From NCBI GenBank assembly GCA_000004985.1, contig GG738907.1: a stretch of DNA of 64,000 nucleotides; one strand, 5' to 3'. This document shows positions 18,187 to 27,155 of this stretch, one piece after another. This stretch comes from Naegleria gruberi (lineage: Eukaryota). Within the stretch, counting starts at the first letter, position 1; the number at the start of each line of letters is the position of its first letter. Position numbers and translations under genes: made by a program. The notes under the pieces were generated by a model. That model saw only the letters and a program-made list of their open reading frames with translations, ran no database searches and was not told the origin of the DNA.

Positions 18187-18592
18187 AAAATGATATTGAT
18201 TTGTAGAAATGATGAGTTTAAGAGAGGATGTTTAGAAAGTTGAGAATTCCCAACTCTATTTGATATTGATTCAATCCCTTCAAATCAAATTCTTGGTATT
18301 TTGTAAAGTACAGAGAATCAAGACGCCATTTCGCTCGATTTATCTCTTAAATTACTGGTCATCTTTTAAAAATCACAAATTGGTTTATTTCAGATTTCAA
18401 TAATTAAATACAACTTTCACTCCATTTCATTGTATTATGAATTGTATATTTTGAATAGTGTTTCTTCAAAGTATTGTTGTTATTATTTTGGCGGGTTGTA
18501 GTTTTCAAAAATACACCATGTGTCACTTGACATTTAGAAAATTCCTTAAATACTGAACTGTTTTCGAGAAATGATTGAATCAAAACAAAAAA

Positions 18593-20473
18593 ATGAATCA
18601 AAACAATAGATTCCTAGTGTTTGCGCTTCTAGGTCTTACTTGCTTGATTAGCTTCATTCTTACTAGCTCTGTAGTTGAAGGTAGAAGAGCTGCAGTTGTG
18701 CGTAAAGTTGCAGCTGTCAAGAAGCAATTGACCTACAAGAAATGTGAATCTGTTGGTGACCCTCATTATCTTTCTTTCACTGGTCAACGTTTCGATCACA
18801 TGGGATTAGGTGATTATGTTCTTGCTCAATCATCTGACAATCAATTCACAGTCCATGTTAGAACTAGTAAGTGGGGAGGTGCTGCAGCTGTCAATTCCAA
18901 TGTTGCTGTCAGATTAGGTAAAGGCGAGGATGATACTTTCGAATATGATGTCGAACAAGATGTTTTTTACCTTTCTGGTGTTAAGGCAAGTTTGGGTGTC
19001 AATCAAAAGGTTTCTCTTGGAACTGGTGATGTTCAAAGAATCAACACAAACACTGCTGTAGTTTCTGGCTCAAATGGTATCAAGATGACCATGTCTTGGT
19101 ATCGTCATGCTGCTTGGAAGCAACAATTGGGTTCTGTTGGTTATATTTCAGTTGTCATTGATGCTCCAAGTGATATTACTTTCAATAAGGGTATGTGTCT
19201 TGGTGCTTCCGAAGCTTCTCAACAAGCCATTGATATTCTCCACAACCATGTCCAAAGAAGAATTGCTAGAAAGGCTGAACTCAAGAAGGCTACTCCAAAG
19301 AGATCTAGATCTGCTAGAAAGGTCTGTAAGAAGGCTGGTTTGAATAAGAAGCAAAATCCATTCGCTTGGAAGTCTTGTGTCAAGGATGCTATTCAATCTG
19401 GATCCAAGATTGGTTTGAAGATTGGTCAAAACATCAAGAAGGTCAAAGTTGCTGAAAAGAAGGTTTTGAAGAAGGAAATCAAGAAGAAGGCTAAGAAGAT
19501 TGTTCGTAAGGAAAAGAAGGCTATTGAAAAGGCAAAGAAGGAAGCTGACTTGTTGAAGAAGAAGGCCGATCAAGCTCAAAAGAAGGCAACTCAAAAGAGA
19601 GCCAAGTGTGCTAAACGTGCTTCAAGAAAGGCCAGACGTGCTGCTAGAAGAGCAAGACGTGCTGCCAAAAGACTTGCCAAGAAGAAGCAAATTCTCAAAA
19701 AGGTCAAGAAAACCATTAAGAGATCTGTTCGTACCAAGATTACTATTGTCAAGAACTGGAAGAAAATCATCAAGAAGGTTTTGAATGATAGAAAGAAGGC
19801 CCTCAGAGCTGCTAAGAAGGCAAGACAAGCTGCTAAGAAAGCTATTAAAGAAGCTTCAAGAAAGGCCAGAAAAATTGCTGAAGAAAAGAAGAGACAAGCT
19901 GAAGAATTGGCCAGAAAGCTCCAAAGAGATGCTGAAGCTGCTGCTAAGAAATTGAGAGATGCTGTTGAAGCTGCTGCTAGAAAGGCAAGAGAAGCTGCTG
20001 AAAGAGCTAGACAACAAGCTGAAAATGCTAAATTGGAAGCAACTCGTCGTGCTAGAGTAAAAGCTGCAAGATTGGCCAAGTTAGCTAGAGAAGCTGCTGA
20101 AAGAGCTGCCAAGCAACAAAGAGCTATCCTTGAACAAATCCAAAAGCTTGCTAAATTGGCTGCTATCAAAAAGGCTCAACAAGAAGCTGAAGCAAAGAAG
20201 AGAGCTGCTGAAGCATTGAGACTTGTTGAAGAAGCCAAGAGAAAGGCTGCTGAAGCTCTTGAACGTGCTAAGGCTGAAGCAACCAGAAGAGCCATTGAAA
20301 TTGCTGACAGATTAAGAAAGGCTGCTGAAAAGGCTGCTGAAGAAGCTGCTAAAAGAGTCAAGATGGTTGAAGAATTGAAGAAGAAAGCCCTTAAGGATGT
20401 TGAAAAGCAAGCTAGAAAGCTCCTTAATGGTGGTGTTTCCAAGGGAAAGACTGTATGTTTCAGACTTCCTTAA
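18593..20473 (+). CDS. Secreted protein: signal peptide + von Willebrand D-like domain with GDPH motif + ~430-aa Lys/Ala/Glu/Arg-rich helical repeat
   Basis: The ATG at 18593 gives MNQNNRFLVFALLGLTCLISFIL, a signal peptide. KCESVGDPHYLSFTGQRFDHMGLGDYVLAQSS matches the VWD start C-x-x-GDPHY-x-TFDG, the motif that flanks the autocatalytic Asp-Pro site in VWD/RGM proteins. From about 19380 to 20440 the sequence is an uninterrupted K/A/R/E-rich helical low-complexity region (KKAKKIVRKEKKAIEKAKKEADLLKKKADQAQKKA...). Confidence 0.6.
   Translation: MNQNNRFLVFALLGLTCLISFILTSSVVEGRRAAVVRKVAAVKKQLTYKKCESVGDPHYLSFTGQRFDHMGLGDYVLAQSSDNQFTVHVRTSKWGGAAAVNSNVAVRLGKGEDDTFEYDVEQDVFYLSGVKASLGVNQKVSLGTGDVQRINTNTAVVSGSNGIKMTMSWYRHAAWKQQLGSVGYISVVIDAPSDITFNKGMCLGASEASQQAIDILHNHVQRRIARKAELKKATPKRSRSARKVCKKAGLNKKQNPFAWKSCVKDAIQSGSKIGLKIGQNIKKVKVAEKKVLKKEIKKKAKKIVRKEKKAIEKAKKEADLLKKKADQAQKKATQKRAKCAKRASRKARRAARRARRAAKRLAKKKQILKKVKKTIKRSVRTKITIVKNWKKIIKKVLNDRKKALRAAKKARQAAKKAIKEASRKARKIAEEKKRQAEELARKLQRDAEAAAKKLRDAVEAAARKAREAAERARQQAENAKLEATRRARVKAARLAKLAREAAERAAKQQRAILEQIQKLAKLAAIKKAQQEAEAKKRAAEALRLVEEAKRKAAEALERAKAEATRRAIEIADRLRKAAEKAAEEAAKRVKMVEELKKKALKDVEKQARKLLNGGVSKGKTVCFRLP
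19380..20440 (+). repeat. Coding low-complexity repeat: ~1 kb of Lys/Ala/Arg/Glu codons (aag/gct/aga/gaa periodicity) inside the VWD gene
   Basis: Visible as reiterated aagaaggc, gctgctaagaa, gaagctgctg units. This creates spurious long ORFs in other frames on both strands. Confidence 0.7.
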
Positions 20474-20858: not shown

Positions 20859-22378
20859 ATGTCTTTGAATATCAATAGTCATTCAGGATCAAGAAATCAC
20901 TCGCGTAATCCCTCACCAATGGTGCCACCAACTTCGATATTGAAGAAGGCTGTGATTCCTCCGAATAATTCGGCACAGAATAGTGTCACAATTAATATGT
21001 CAAAGAATGAAACAAAGAGTACAAGTTTTAAATGTTGTTGGTGCATGGATATTTTGAAAGAACCTATTCAATTATCGAGCACGTGTTCTCATTATGGATG
21101 TGCCAGATGTATCAATCTGTTATTGAATTTTGAAAAGTTGAAACGTTGTTGTGATAAATAGTTGAGAATAGGAAACCTTATGAGATACCATGTCCTTGTT
21201 GTCCCAATAGATTGTCATTGTTGTATGATAAGGTACATTCAGATCCTTCGGTATTTGAGCAGAACCAGGAGGGCTATTATTCTACATTTAACAGTGCTCG
21301 ATCAGATGGATTTGGCGGTGAAAAGATTAATCCTTACCTATTTACTCTTATTGATGAAGAGTTTAAATCACTCGCAGATGAGTATGGTAATACAGAATTG
21401 GAAGGTAGAATGTGTGCCAATTGCGAGACTACTCTAGCTACTTGCCAATGTGAAACATGTAAATTTATTCTTTGTGGTGAGTGTTTTGCCTCCATTCATG
21501 ACCAAAAGTTATTGAGCTCACACAAAAAGGCTGATCTAAGGCCTGGAAATTATATTCCTATTAATGAAAAATGTATGAAACATGGAAAGGATTTGGATTT
21601 ATTTTGTATGAACGATAATGAGAAAGTTTGCAGTTTATGTGCCATATCTGAAACTCACAAAAATCATCAGTGTATTCCTGTAAACGAGCATATTTCACAC
21701 TTACACGATGATTTGAGGGTTCAAGCTGAACATCTATTTGCAGATGATGATTCAGCCATTCATAATGAAATTAGTAATATTACCAGTTTTTTACAACATG
21801 CAAATGATTACTATGTACAGTCTAAGAATTTTATTGAGGAAAACTTTGGAAAAATTGAAGCAGCACTAAAAAAGAGAAAGGAAGGCTTGTTGAACACAGC
21901 TTTAAAAACTTACAAAAATCCCAACATGGAAGAAAAGGTTAAATTGCTGAAAACATTCTCCTTCTCTGGTTGGAGAGATTCTATTGCACGATTTTCACGA
22001 AAGCTCAATGAAGAAGACAAGATTAATCAAACATCTAAACGATTGGAATTCATTGAAAATCATCTCACCATTGATCACATGTTGAACTCGGGAGATATCA
22101 TACCTGGTAATAATTTGGAATCTAGTCAAGAAGATAATGCTTATTCCAGATCTCAAACACCAATGTTGGAGGATGGTATTGTTTCAGATATTATCAATAT
22201 GATTGAAATGATTACGATATCAAAAGATGAACATGCTCAAAATCAAGAAAATATCAAACATGATAAGAAATTCAAATCAATAATCGGAGACATGATGCAC
22301 CAAAATGAAAATTCAATACGAAAGTCCATTTCCATCACTTGTTTGAGCTCTAAAAAACGATTAGGATCTACGCAATAA
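20859..22378 (+). CDS. RING + B-box1 + B-box2 + coiled-coil (RBCC/TRIM-like) protein, 2 exons (20859..21118, 21172..22378; intron 53 nt)
   Basis: Exon 1 carries the first part of a RING (CCWC...STCSHYGCARC). A read-through stop at 21159 is avoided by the donor gttattg at 21119 and the acceptor aatag at 21170-71. The junction codon ct|g then restores CARCINL|KPYEIPCPCC, a complete C3HC4 RING. B-box1 is CANCETTLATCQCETCKFILCGECFASIH. B-box2 is CMKHGKDLDLFCMNDNEKVCSLCAISETHKNH. A coiled coil follows. Confidence 0.6.
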
Positions 22379-23196: not shown

Positions 23197-23791
23197 TTTT
23201 TTTAATTGTTAGTTGTTTGATTTGTAACATCAGATGATTGCTTTATTGCTTTTCATAAGATGATTGCAATCATGTTATCTTCCTGATGAAGATCAGCTGG
23301 CTGCCTCCAACAGACAAAAATTCAACTCATTGGACAACGATGATGATCATAAAAGTTTAATGTGGCTTGTTTTGTGTGGCGTTTAATGTCCTATCGGAAT
23401 GAATCCATTTGGTAGACAATTATTTTCGTTATAGTAATCAGGAATGATGGTTCCTTTCTCTTTACAAAGTTGCTGTTGTTAGCAAAGAAATAGGATTGTT
23501 CAATTCATTGTTTGGAAATTTCCAAGTTGTATTATTAAACGTTTTTGTTCATGTAATTAGCGCCATATTGACCGTTACATATTTTTTAAATATTCAAATT
23601 TTTTTAAAAAAACAATTTCAAACAAATAGGATGAAAAGGAATAATTGTATTATTGGCAATTTTGGCGGATGATAATAGTGCATACCCGTGATACTTTTCA
23701 GGTCCATACAACAAGTGGTGCAAAATTGGTTTAGATAGTGAATAAGTGGTAAAGTAATGGCAAAAAATTGGTGGAATTTTCAGAAAACAAA

Positions 23792-26700
23792 ATGTTCAAA
23801 GGCTCATACTACGAGAAGGTTCTTGATGAAGAGGAGAGTTTCAAACCAACAACAACACCATCATCACCATCAGAACAACATGAAGATGTAGATAGTACTT
23901 CTTCGGAGGAAAATAATATACTTCCACCAATGATATCATCTCCAATGGAAAAGAAGGAAAATATAACGGTTGATCGAATGGAAACAAAGGCTTGTTCGAA
24001 GGCTTGTTGTTCTTCATCATCATCATCGAAGGCTGGTTGCTCAGAGGAAGAAGAACAACACGAACATTCGGCAGTTAATAGTACTCACAAACATAGTAAA
24101 AGAGGAACGAAATCAAAGTTGATGTATGGAAAGAAGAAGATCAAAATTAGTCAACTGCAACATTTGACAAAACAACATGATGAACATCATCACGAAGAAG
24201 AAACGACGTCAGAAACAACAAACATTTGCGAGAAGTCAAGCTCTTCTAATTGTTGTTCTTATGGTTCTTGCTCAAAGGAAAAACAAAAAGAACCAAACAA
24301 TGCAATTGTTTCAGATTGCTGTTCTTCAGGTTCCTGTTCCAAGAAAAGCAATGTTCCAGTTGAGAAGAAATCAACATGTACTTCTGGTTGTTGCCAGTCA
24401 GTATCAACTTCCACTGAGAGCAGAACAGAATTGAAATTGGATAATTTACTTCCTAATCACAAGTCTCTGCATTTGACTGTGAGAAATTTGCATTGTGCTG
24501 ATTGTGCCAATATGGTTGAGGGAGTTTTAATTAAGAAGAATGGTATTCTGAATGCCAGAGTGAATAGTATGACAGATTCAGCTCATGTAGTATATGACGA
24601 ATTAATTATACAAGAAACATTAATTGTAAAATCAATTCAAGACCTTGGATTTCCAACTAGTGTCTCTCTATTGAAAAACATTTCAAATTCTGATCAGGAA
24701 ACTCTTACAACCATGTTCGAATTCAAACAGGAGTTACAAACACACAAAGTAGATGAATTAGTTAAGAGCATTGAAAAAGGGGATGGCATTATTCATACGG
24801 CCTATGATACATCGAGTTGTCTCCTCCAAGTGGCTTACAATCCTGATATTACAGGTACAAGAGATATTAAGAAAATGATTGAAACCATCGATTCGAGCCA
24901 TATGTTTACAATTATGAGTGGTAGTAAAGCTAACGAGATTACCGATCAGAACAATAAGAATGAAATCAAAATATGGAGGAGAAACCTTATTGTTTCCTTC
25001 ATTCTTAGTATTCCAGTCATATTTACAGCATTCATCTTTCCAATGATCAAACCAGTTGATGAATTTTTGAAGAAGGAATTCTTACAAGGCCTCAATAGTT
25101 ATATTCTTATTGGATTTATTTTCTCAACACCAATCCAATTTTATTTTGGAAGACCATTGTACATGTCAGCTTACAGAGCTCTACGATATGCAAAAAAGCC
25201 AAACATGGATACACTTGTAATGCTGTCAACTACCACTGCTTATGTTTACTCGTTAGTGAGTACAATAATTGCAATGTTTGTTGAGACTTACAAGGCCGAA
25301 GCATTCTTTGAAACTTCGGCACTCTTGTTGACATTTATCATTTTGGGAAGGTAGGTTTTCTTACTTGTTATTAATTTTATTTATAATTACTATTAAGGTT
25401 TTTGGAAATACTTGCCAAAGGACAAACTTCGAGCATACTTACTTCCATTTTGAAACTCAGATGCACCAAAGCTTTTTTGATATTCAGAGGAAACTATGAA
25501 AGAATAACATGTCAAACCGAACTTGTAAATAATTCACATGCTGTAGAGGAAGAGGAGATTGATACTGATCTTGTTCAAAGAGGCGACATTTTAAAATGCC
25601 TTCCAGGTTCAAAAATTCCAACTGATGGAGTAGTGTTTTATGGCACTACATCGATTGATGAATCAATGATTAGGTAAGTTTTGAACCATAATTTAATTTG
25701 ACATTATTCAACCATAATAGTGGTGAATCTATTCCAGTTAACAAGGATGTTGGAGATTTTGTTTATGGCAGTACAATCAATCAATTTGGAACAATCTATA
25801 TCCGTGTAACAAAAACTAGTTCTGAAAATACTCTTTCTTCAATTGACAAATTAATTCACGAATCTCAAAATGCTAAAGTACCCATTCAAAGAATTGCTGA
25901 TAATGTTAGTGCAGTGTTTGTACCTGTAATTATTGGTATTTCCTTATTGGCTTTTATTATTTGGATCAGTTTGTGTTATGCTGGAGTTTTGGAAACTGAC
26001 CTGCATCCAATCACCTTTGCTTTACAGTTCTCTCTTGCAATTTTGGTAATTAGTTGTCCTTGTGCTATTAGTTTGGCAGCTCCAACAGCTGTGATGGTCG
26101 GTATCGCCAAAGGTGTTGAGTATGGTGTACTATTCAAGAATGGTGCTGTAATTGAGATGTGCCACAAGGTTAACACAGTCATATTTGACAAGACTGGTAC
26201 CTTAACCAATGGAAAACCAGTTGTTACAGACGTGTTGCTTTTTGAGGGAGATGATTTGAAGCAATTCAAAGCAATTATAGGTTCTGCAGAGTTGGGAAGT
26301 GAACACGTTATTGGAAAGGCTATTTCAACACACGTAGAAAAGGAGGGAATAGCTATAGAACAACCTGTTGATTATCAAGCAGTTCCAGGAAAAGGATTAA
26401 AATGTACAGTCTATGGAAAACAAGTGATTGCAGGTAATTGCACTTGGATGAAGGACAATTCAATTGAAATTTCAGAAACACAACAAGAACAAATTTTAAC
26501 TTTGGAGAATCAAGGAAAGACAATTGTTCACGTTGCAATCGATGGTTCTTTACATGGAATTGTTGCCCTCTCTGATACTCTCAAGGTGGAATCCAAACGA
26601 GTTATTGATGAATTGAAGAAGAAGAATGTGGAAATTTGGGTGGTTAGTGGAGACAACCAAGTCACAACTAGATATATCGCCAACCAATTAGGCATTGAGA

Positions 26701-27155
26701 ATGTAATGGCCAATGTCCTTCCAGCCTACAAGAGAGAAAAAGTGCTTGAATTGCAACAAGGTAAAACTTCCAATGGTAAAAAGAGAGTTGTTGCAATGAT
26801 TGGAGATGGTATCAATGATTCACCATCTCTAGCCCAAGCAGATGTTGGTTTTGCAATTGGATGTGGTTCAGATATTGCCTTAGAAACTGCGGATATCATT
26901 TTGGTAAAGAGTGATTTGAGAGATGTGCTTGTGGCTTTGGATTTGTCAAGGACTACTTTCAGAAGAATCAAACTCAACTTTTTATGGGCCTTCCTTTATA
27001 ATGCTGTTGGTATTCCATTATCTGCTGGAGCATTCTATCCAATCCTTGGTATTGCAATTCCACCAGCTATTGCAGGATTATCTGAGATTTTCTCTTCCAT
27101 TCCTGTAATTCTCTTCTCCTTACTTTTGAAATTCTACAAACCAAAGATTTATTAA
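23792..27155 (+). CDS. Copper-transporting P1B-type ATPase, 3 exons (23792..25350, 25398..25673, 25721..27155; two 47-nt introns)
   Basis: The N-terminus is Cys/His-rich, followed by an HMA-like domain (LTVRNLHCADCANMVEG). The CPC transport motif is ISCPCAISLAAP. Exon junctions restore ILGR|FLEILAKGQTS and DESMI|SGESIPV, the actuator (T/S)GES motif. Other motifs are DKTGTLT and GDGINDSPSLAQADVGFAIG. The first ATG is at 23792; the called ORF begins at an upstream TTG. Confidence 0.8.

Follow-up and report, generated by a model that had tools for sequence, protein, structure and literature searches.

What does a von Willebrand D-type (VWD) domain with a self-cleavage motif do at the head of a long and extremely basic protein in an amoeba, and what becomes of the basic tail? 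The question is raised by a gene at positions 18593-20473 (+) of a 64,000-nucleotide stretch of Naegleria gruberi DNA (contig GG738907.1, assembly GCA_000004985.1), which is the window analysed here. In mucins and von Willebrand factor (VWF), VWD domains form the heads through which these proteins polymerise, and they are usually treated as animal inventions. The original prediction for this gene was a secreted VWD domain whose GDPH site could release a polycationic repeat of about 430 residues. We find that a single reading frame encodes a VWD head and a polybasic, predicted helical tail, that this architecture is shared by a family of Naegleria and Willaertia proteins, and that the GDPH motif is placed where it cannot free the tail. 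Secreted VWD proteins are a known class; what is new is the variant with a polybasic helical tail, in an amoeba family that is uncharacterised. The role that we tentatively favour for it, by analogy, is cohesion or adhesion in an extracellular matrix.

The gene, its VWD head and its family

The gene and its N-terminal parts comprise the following features, each with its basis in brackets.

18593-20473, + strand: complete single-exon coding sequence, 626 amino acids and a TAA stop (translation of the open reading frame, ORF)
18593-18682, + strand: signal-peptide-like N-terminus, residues 1-30, reading MNQNNR, FLVFALLGLTCLISFILT, SSVVEG (Kyte-Doolittle hydrophobicity, relatives)
18731-19207, + strand: predicted VWD beta-sandwich, about residues 47-205, including Cys202 in the segment KGMCLG (Pfam, AlphaFold, Foldseek)
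19295-19462, + strand: conserved helical stub with the invariant Cys245 and Cys262 (C.KAG...C..D.IQSG.KIG), in the place of a C8 domain (alignment, AlphaFold, Foldseek)

The uninterrupted ORF spans 18575-20473 (+), with its first in-frame ATG at 18593 and its stop at 20471-20473. The window has about 34% GC and is gene-dense, its genes being mostly intron-poor, and four of its long ORFs are identical to the N. gruberi proteins EFC38448, EFC38449, EFC38457 and EFC38461, encoded on a 275-kb scaffold, which identifies it as nuclear DNA of this species. The exact 626-residue product is absent from a collection of 15 billion proteins. A full HMMER search with residues 1-274 against 1.84 billion representatives also returned no self-match, the top match in this library, which is clustered at 50% identity, being a 42%-identical paralogue. 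The public set of N. gruberi proteins therefore seems to lack the gene or to contain it in a mis-modelled form. A word-indexed protein search found nothing with the first 274 residues and only 3 JGI proteins with the family alignment; it missed all Naegleria relatives found by HMMER, and its negatives are uninformative for this locus.

Both absences also speak for an annotation artefact, in which the lysine- and alanine-rich part would be non-coding low-complexity DNA, or a separate gene, that by chance shares the frame of a VWD exon. Long ORFs are also found on the strand opposite the tail, as low-complexity sequence will yield, and these are a by-product of the composition of the tail. We nevertheless regard an artefact as extremely improbable. 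At the base composition of the window, the odds of 626 open codons arising by chance are about 1e-21; head and tail are also joined in single ORFs of N. fowleri (in a single exon), of a metagenome contig, of Willaertia and of an N. gruberi paralogue; and the conserved spacing of Cys339 and a conserved C-terminal cysteine motif fall within the tail itself. We conclude that 18593-20473 is a genuine, uncharacterised N. gruberi gene, and that the VWD domain and the tail belong to one protein, as had been proposed.

Residues 1-30 consist of a short leader with Arg6, an uncharged core of 18 residues, and SSVVEG immediately before a pair of arginines (SSVVEG|RR); the top 15-residue window reaches a mean Kyte-Doolittle hydrophobicity of 2.68. 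Similar hydrophobic N-termini, followed by VE(G/A/S) and an arginine or lysine, are found in the four relatives labelled P0009, P0010, P0011 and P0016 below, and family members with complete N-termini have signal-like starts. By these heuristics, namely hydrophobicity and the junction pattern that recurs in relatives, the predicted signal peptide holds up, and we infer that the protein enters the secretory pathway.

That the head has a VWD fold is confirmed, at the level of profiles and models, by concordant sequence and structure matches, bearing out the original assignment. Pfam VWD (PF00094) matches residues 51-174 (E=1.2e-7; 32.6 bits against a cut-off of 22.9) and is likewise matched by 23 of 23 modules in an alignment of sequences drawn from the HMMER matches, while the top sequence matches of the head in the Protein Data Bank (PDB) are FCGBP, MUC5B/5AC, VWF and MUC2. 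An AlphaFold model of residues 31-290, built from this 23-sequence module alignment, has a mean predicted local distance difference test score (pLDDT) of 91.9 and a predicted template modelling score of 0.85. It consists of a beta-sandwich at residues ~48-200, mostly above pLDDT 90, followed by three helices at ~235-289. Compared with the PDB by Foldseek, the model retrieves VWF D assemblies, MUC2, MUC5AC, MUC5B, FCGBP and RGMB with E-values of 1e-10 to 1e-4 and a probability of 1.0; nearly all of the 49 matches at E<=0.001 are VWD-containing structures.

Residues 215-290, between sandwich and tail, form a conserved structured linker. Its three helices (205-217, 226-239 and 241-259 in model numbering) correspond to protein residues 235-289, the Foldseek alignments are ~270 columns long and span this stub, and Cys245 and Cys262 are invariant in the 23-sequence alignment. 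More distant family members have a third stub cysteine (C..D.C..G), a pattern which we take to recall the start of a C8 domain. Pfam C8 has no match in any of the 23 family members, and we regard the stub as a possible C8 remnant, nothing beyond that. Assignment to a complete D assembly (VWD-C8-TIL-E) or to the gel-forming mucins was rejected: Pfam finds VWD alone at E<=1, the stub has two cysteines and not eight, and there is no Ser/Thr/Pro-rich region. The RGM family was rejected as well. RGM_C is matched weakly by 16 of 23 family relatives, and the N. gruberi protein itself has no RGM_C match at E<=1; its C-terminus (...KTVCFRLP) is not hydrophobic, so it offers no signal of the glycosylphosphatidylinositol (GPI) type.

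The HMMER search yielded 449 matches at E<=1e-3, with E-values down to 1e-115, and the closest relatives match over about residues 40-274 of the query. They include a 533-residue N. fowleri protein (XP_044566319, labelled P0010; 51% identity, E 3e-77), a 603-residue metagenome protein (P0011; 52% identity), a 926-residue N. gruberi protein with two VWD modules (EFC38641, also XP_002671385; P0009) and a 455-residue Willaertia magna protein (KAL9649995; P0016). All four carry basic Lys/Arg/Ala tails, that of P0009 being long, and in N. fowleri the same head and tail are encoded by one exon. Thus the fusion, which had been called unusual, is shared by several proteins, and a combination of VWD with Lys/Arg-rich sequence is also known from the flatworm adhesive protein Mlig-ap1 (see below). 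XP_044566319, EFC38641 and KAL9649995 are themselves uncharacterised, being named 'predicted protein' or 'VWFD domain-containing protein'. Some N. fowleri and N. lovaniensis relatives have mucin-like regions rich in Ser, Thr, Lys and Pro around the module, and distant modules from environmental protists have Pro/Arg-rich, His-rich, Cys/Arg-rich or Lys/Cys-repeat flanks. The proteins carrying 28 of the 29 full modules have isoelectric points of 9.6-12, and the remaining HMMER matches are metazoan multi-VWD proteins. VWD domains in Naegleria, and protist VWD domains without C8 or TIL, were described by Lang et al. 2016 (PMC4948705), where the Naegleria domain was noted in passing; here it becomes part of a conserved amoeba family, nearly all of whose members are extremely basic.

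Two further observations concern the wider family. A basic mini-domain of ~65 residues with two cysteines (L..LKK.L..KWNP..(H/Y)L...I.K......C.R........L..LA.C) stands at the C-termini of P0016 and P0009 and at the N-termini of P0026 and P0042, so that the terminus which carries it differs between VWD paralogues; Pfam has no name for it, and the protein studied here is without it. Separately, P0093 (7970-12532 of locus L005) and P0135 are secreted proteins of ~1,500 residues, from a low-GC (28%) eukaryote, in which about ten Lys/Cys-rich repeats of ~100 residues precede a VWD module of this type at the C-terminus.

The GDPH motif and the fate of the tail

Two features bear on the question of autoproteolysis.

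18755-18766, + strand: GDPH motif, residues 55-58 (six-frame motif scan, family alignment)
18683-18760, + strand: basic N-terminal peptide and strand beta1, residues 31-56, containing Cys51; the fragment that cleavage of Asp56-Pro57 would split off (sequence, AlphaFold)

A six-frame scan of the window found GDPH once, the sole other match to G[DN]PH being a GNPH in a stop-interrupted frame. Across the 23 aligned family sequences Gly55 and Pro57 are invariant, and Asp56 and His58 are conserved in at least 90%. In the model the motif lies at the N-terminal edge of the VWD domain, where strands beta1 (48-54) and beta2 (58-60) flank it, and this beta1/beta2 position is that of the self-cleaving motif in FCGBP D10 (PMC10880436). 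Cleavage of FCGBP needs both the aspartate and the histidine, and is abolished by D->A/N or H->N (PMC10880436); both residues are present here, so that the predicted motif is intact as well as conserved.

The consequence of a cut at this site, in contrast, would differ from that first proposed. Because the motif precedes the whole VWD body while the tail follows it, cleavage cannot free the tail, which would remain covalently attached; the Asp56-Pro57 cut would separate only residues 31-56, a peptide of 26 residues. Cys51, in beta1, and Cys202, in the GMCLG segment after the last strand, sit at the positions of the FCGBP disulfide that keeps beta1 attached after cleavage (PMC10880436). Both cysteines occur in most family members and are jointly lost in P0026, P0028 and P0042, which is covariation evidence for a Cys51-Cys202 pairing. 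By analogy with FCGBP, then, the 31-56 fragment probably stays tethered. The effect of the cut may lie elsewhere: according to Yeshaya et al., GDPH cleavage raises the protease resistance of FCGBP.

These points bear directly on a function first suggested, in which GDPH autoproteolysis would free the tail, as a histone-H1-like repeat, to build or coat extracellular DNA traps. The motif is there, and the tail contains Arg/Ala helical segments such as RKARRAARRARRAAKR, which resemble arginine-rich nucleic-acid-binding helices. We consider the proposal very unlikely all the same, since the tail would stay on the VWD body, is not a repeat (see below) and does not resemble a linker histone: there is no Pfam match to H1 and none to its globular winged-helix domain, a single proline is found in 341 residues and none before the end of the tail, S/TPKK motifs are missing, and a predicted signal sequence is present. 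No report of Naegleria DNA traps was found, in literature searches that were not aimed at traps.

In P0026 (N. fowleri FDP41_011818), P0028 and P0042, a Pro/Arg-rich N-terminal region runs directly into GRGRGDPHY, and both tether cysteines are gone. In this subfamily, judged from its sequences, GDPH cleavage would truly free a basic N-terminal polypeptide.

The polybasic, predicted helical tail

Beyond the stub, the tail can be divided as follows.

19463-19852, + strand: proximal hyper-basic tail, residues 291-420 (residues 301-420: K 33%, R 13%, E 3%; composition)
19607-19609, + strand: Cys339, a conserved mid-tail cysteine exactly 77 residues past Cys262 (spacing in relatives)
19853-20428, + strand: distal, predicted Ala/Lys/Arg/Glu helix, residues 421-612, rich in charge pairs (composition, AlphaFold)
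20429-20470, + strand: non-helical C-terminal end NGGVSKGKTVCFRLP with the conserved Cys622 (pLDDT <50, relatives)

With residues 215-290 structured, the low-complexity tail is about 330-340 residues long and not 430 as first given; nor is it almost entirely Lys, Ala, Arg and Glu, which make up 67% of residues 231-626 (K 24%, A 22%, R 12%, E 9%). Residues 286-626 have a similar composition (K 23%, A 24%, R 13%, E 10%) and a net charge of +82, and the only proline and the three glycines among these 341 residues all fall within the last 14. Towards the C-terminus the balance of charges shifts, with A 27%, K 16%, R 14% and E 14% in residues 421-626. A full-length AlphaFold model places helices at 256-376, 388-515 and 526-612 with a pLDDT of 65-80, making the tail ~95% helical, with breaks at SVRTKITIVKN and at 516-525. 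A Lys/Ala-rich tail that is predicted to be helical was thus correctly recognised from the start.

The order in this sequence is periodic rather than repetitive. Its hydrophobicity has a period of 3.65 residues throughout (power 153, against 58 +/- 13 in shuffled sequences), with autocorrelation peaks at 4, 7, 11, 18, 22, 29, 33 and 40; an exception within the tail is the region of residues ~336-435, where the period leans to 3.5. Among four relatives tested, the tails of P0010, P0011 and P0009 have the same period of 3.65 (with higher z-scores), and that of Willaertia P0016 peaks at 3.50. This is the pattern of an undistorted (11/3) amphipathic helix with a stripe made mainly of alanine, as read from the sequence, and not that of a classical heptad coiled coil. 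Classification as a tandem-repeat protein was rejected: there is no recognisable unit, and Tandem Repeats Finder (TRF) reports just 2-3 imperfect copies of 12-33 bp units, so that the term repeat in the original prediction has to be given up. The tails of the closest relatives cannot be aligned with this one (BLASTP E>20), searches of Pfam gave no family, with LEA and apolipoprotein unmatched even at E<=10, and searches of the PDB gave marginal matches only, to de novo designed helical proteins (E 0.05-0.4). At the sequence level, then, composition and periodicity of the tail are conserved though its sequence is not.

Two cysteines depart from this freedom. The spacing of 77 residues between the second stub cysteine and the mid-tail cysteine is repeated in P0010 (250 to 327) and P0011 (246 to 323), and the same three proteins share a C-terminal C(F/L/I)R(L/I)(P/A). 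The distance from the mid-tail to the C-terminal cysteine varies (283, 202 and 276 residues in the N. gruberi protein, P0010 and P0011). From the modelled helix lengths, an intramolecular Cys339-Cys622 disulfide that closes a three-helix, up-down-up tail is geometrically conceivable.

The distal part of the tail differs in character from the proximal part. In residues 421-612, oppositely charged residues are paired at i/i+3 and i/i+4 in 76 cases, against 38 +/- 4.8 in shuffled sequences (z ~8), which gives this part the look of charge-stabilised single helices. Set against the criteria for ER/K single alpha-helices, charge pairs are enriched distally, but Lys and Arg clearly outnumber Glu and Asp, and the proximal tail is nearly without acidic residues. 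Helices with an 11/3 period and A/K/E-rich, charge-paired sequences resemble group-3 LEA and apolipoprotein-type helices. They invite the explanation that the protein is secreted at encystment, protecting the cyst wall or guarding against desiccation, its tail binding acidic wall polysaccharide or acting as an 11-mer LEA-type helix and its VWD domain cross-linking the wall. The Giardia cyst-wall protein CWP2 also bears a basic C-terminal extension, and the named members of the present family all come from cyst-forming vahlkampfiid amoebae. The failure of Pfam LEA and apolipoprotein models to match even permissively argues against a cyst-specific role, which moreover overlaps the matrix role favoured below instead of excluding it, and we think such a role distinctly improbable.

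What the tail might bind is suggested by the make-up of its amphipathic face. The most amphipathic windows are of Arg and Ala, as in RKARRAARRARRAAKRLA in the proximal tail (hydrophobic moment, muH, 0.98; mean hydrophobicity -0.99). Naegleria feeds on bacteria, and a prey-directed antimicrobial polycation is therefore an explanation to be weighed: the protein would be delivered to phagosomes or secreted onto bacteria, where the tail, whole or cut at dibasic sites, would bind, permeabilise or agglutinate envelopes. Its mean hydrophobic moment, 0.52, is in the range of magainin, cecropin and LL-37; there are 48 dibasic sites in the 341 residues; and the basic flanks of relatives resemble further classes of antimicrobial peptide, being rich in Pro and Arg in P0028 and P0042, in His in P0107, and in Cys and Arg in P0084. 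The hydrophobic face of the tail, however, is mostly alanine, with 17% bulky hydrophobic residues against 29-38% in the reference antimicrobial peptides, and its mean hydrophobicity is -0.49, falling to about -1 in the most amphipathic windows. There is also no anionic pro-region that would neutralise the cargo, and the positional conservation of the first 77 tail residues and of two cysteines suggests a structural role over that of a peptide precursor. We therefore consider an antimicrobial role unlikely, if less so than one specific to the cyst. Because bulky hydrophobics are few and the amphipathic windows are of Arg and Ala, the sequence favours polyanion binding over membrane insertion; and since the tail is predicted to be helical and polycationic, that it binds polyanions is a reasonable inference.

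A possible role, and comparison with known systems

Taken together, the protein is best explained, in our view, as a secretory-pathway protein with a folded VWD head and a polyelectrolyte rod, whose most likely function would be cohesive or adhesive, in an extracellular matrix; we favour this explanation tentatively, giving it somewhat less than an even chance. The Asp56-Pro57 bond would cleave itself in the endoplasmic reticulum or Golgi and so stabilise the VWD domain, the 26-residue N-terminal fragment being held by Cys51-Cys202 and the tail staying on the VWD body. In the extracellular space, the tail would form an extended, positively charged helical rod to which polyanions bind electrostatically, and these might be nucleic acid, bacterial envelopes, or acidic glycans or matrix; cellulose, named earlier as a possible partner, is a poor fit to Naegleria gruberi. 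The VWD head, and possibly Cys339 and Cys622, could provide self-association or cross-linking through disulfide multimers. The genus also has Ser/Thr-rich VWD proteins, of which this one would then be a cationic counterpart, comparable to Mlig-ap1 of Macrostomum lignano, which is the nearest functional precedent and the reason for favouring an extracellular cohesive or adhesive role.

Several points weigh against this explanation. The matrix role is drawn from analogy, and beyond the VWD domain the likeness to Mlig-ap1 is one of architecture. GDPH cleavage and all disulfides of the N. gruberi protein are carried over from better-known VWD proteins, and the N-terminus may be an uncleaved signal-anchor, which would make this a cell-surface protein. 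The pLDDT of the tail is just 65-80, from a shallow alignment of 8 sequences, and a helix of net charge +82 may be disordered without counter-ions. No synteny was seen between this locus and the N. fowleri locus, so that orthology with the N. fowleri gene is by similarity only. Finally, we found no publication on any gene of the family, nor a relevant one on Naegleria VWFD or adhesion footprints.

If the wider pattern has one explanation, it may be that heterolobosean amoebae and several uncultured protists have a family of secreted, VWD-headed polycations, a cationic mirror of the mucins that arose outside animals. Such proteins would serve as an electrostatic glue for substrate adhesion, prey capture or the condensation of matrix together with Ser/Thr-rich VWD proteins, with the GDPH nick stabilising or cross-linking the head and, in one subfamily, releasing a basic peptide. 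We put this forward as a doubtful, though conceivable, generalisation. Should members of the family be extracellular glues or prey-binding agents, they would represent a pre-metazoan use of the VWD/GDPH module, offering a simple system for GDPH chemistry, with one domain and four cysteines, and they may be relevant to the attachment of Naegleria, the pathogen N. fowleri among them, to bacteria, host mucus or surfaces.

Two neighbouring loci in the window each appear as pairs of ORFs. At 20859-22378 (+), the ORF 20859-21161 has the first half of a RING-like Cys/His pattern (KCCWCMD...CSHYGCARC), and ~50 nucleotides further on the ORF 21212-22378 encodes two B-box zinc fingers (Pfam zf-B_box, E=5.7e-13); they are probably one heterolobosean gene with a short intron, for a TRIM-like RING/B-box/B-box protein. 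At 23768-27155 (+), two adjacent ORFs encode parts of a copper-type P-type ATPase, namely its HMA metal-binding domain and its E1-E2/HAD core, and are probably a single gene split by an intron.

The closest comparison is with the Naegleria and Willaertia relatives, which have the same order of signal peptide, VWD(GDPH), two-cysteine stub and K/R/A-rich tail; XP_044566319 and P0011 in addition share the conserved mid-tail and C-terminal cysteines. In contrast to this common plan, head identity to these relatives is just 38-51% and the tails cannot be aligned, and EFC38641 differs in its two VWD modules and in the 'WNP' two-cysteine mini-domain at its end, which it has in common with the Willaertia protein.

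The GDPH-bearing VWD domains of FCGBP, MUC2/MUC5AC D4, MUC4, BMPER and RGM resemble the N. gruberi head in their beta-sandwich fold and in a GDPH between beta1 and beta2 with its Asp and His; a beta1 cysteine and a cysteine past the last strand would match the tether disulfide. Unlike these proteins, the amoeba protein has a single VWD domain, without C8, TIL or E by sequence and with four cysteines in head and stub; its VWD is joined to a polybasic helix and not to Pro/Thr/Ser-rich (PTS), CTCK or GPI-anchored parts; and its GDPH cleavage is a prediction.

At the level of architecture, the protein resembles Mlig-ap1, which is also a secreted-type VWD protein with Lys/Arg-rich regions. In Mlig-ap1 these regions are extremely K/R-rich, their positive charge mediates cohesion, and the function is blocked by polyanions such as heparin (PMC6410801). 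Mlig-ap1 is, on the other hand, a metazoan protein of 5,407 residues with C-type lectin, C8, TIL and EGF modules (PMC6410801), and its KR regions are true repeats and contain prolines. The tail by itself compares with charge-stabilised and 11-mer helices (ER/K; apolipoprotein, alpha-synuclein, group-3 LEA), with which it shares a long Pro/Gly-free, helix-favouring composition, an enrichment of opposite charges at i/i+3 and i/i+4, and an 11/3 periodicity. It differs from them in its net charge of +82, in having no sequence or Pfam relationship to any of them, and in being part of a protein that is predicted to be secreted.

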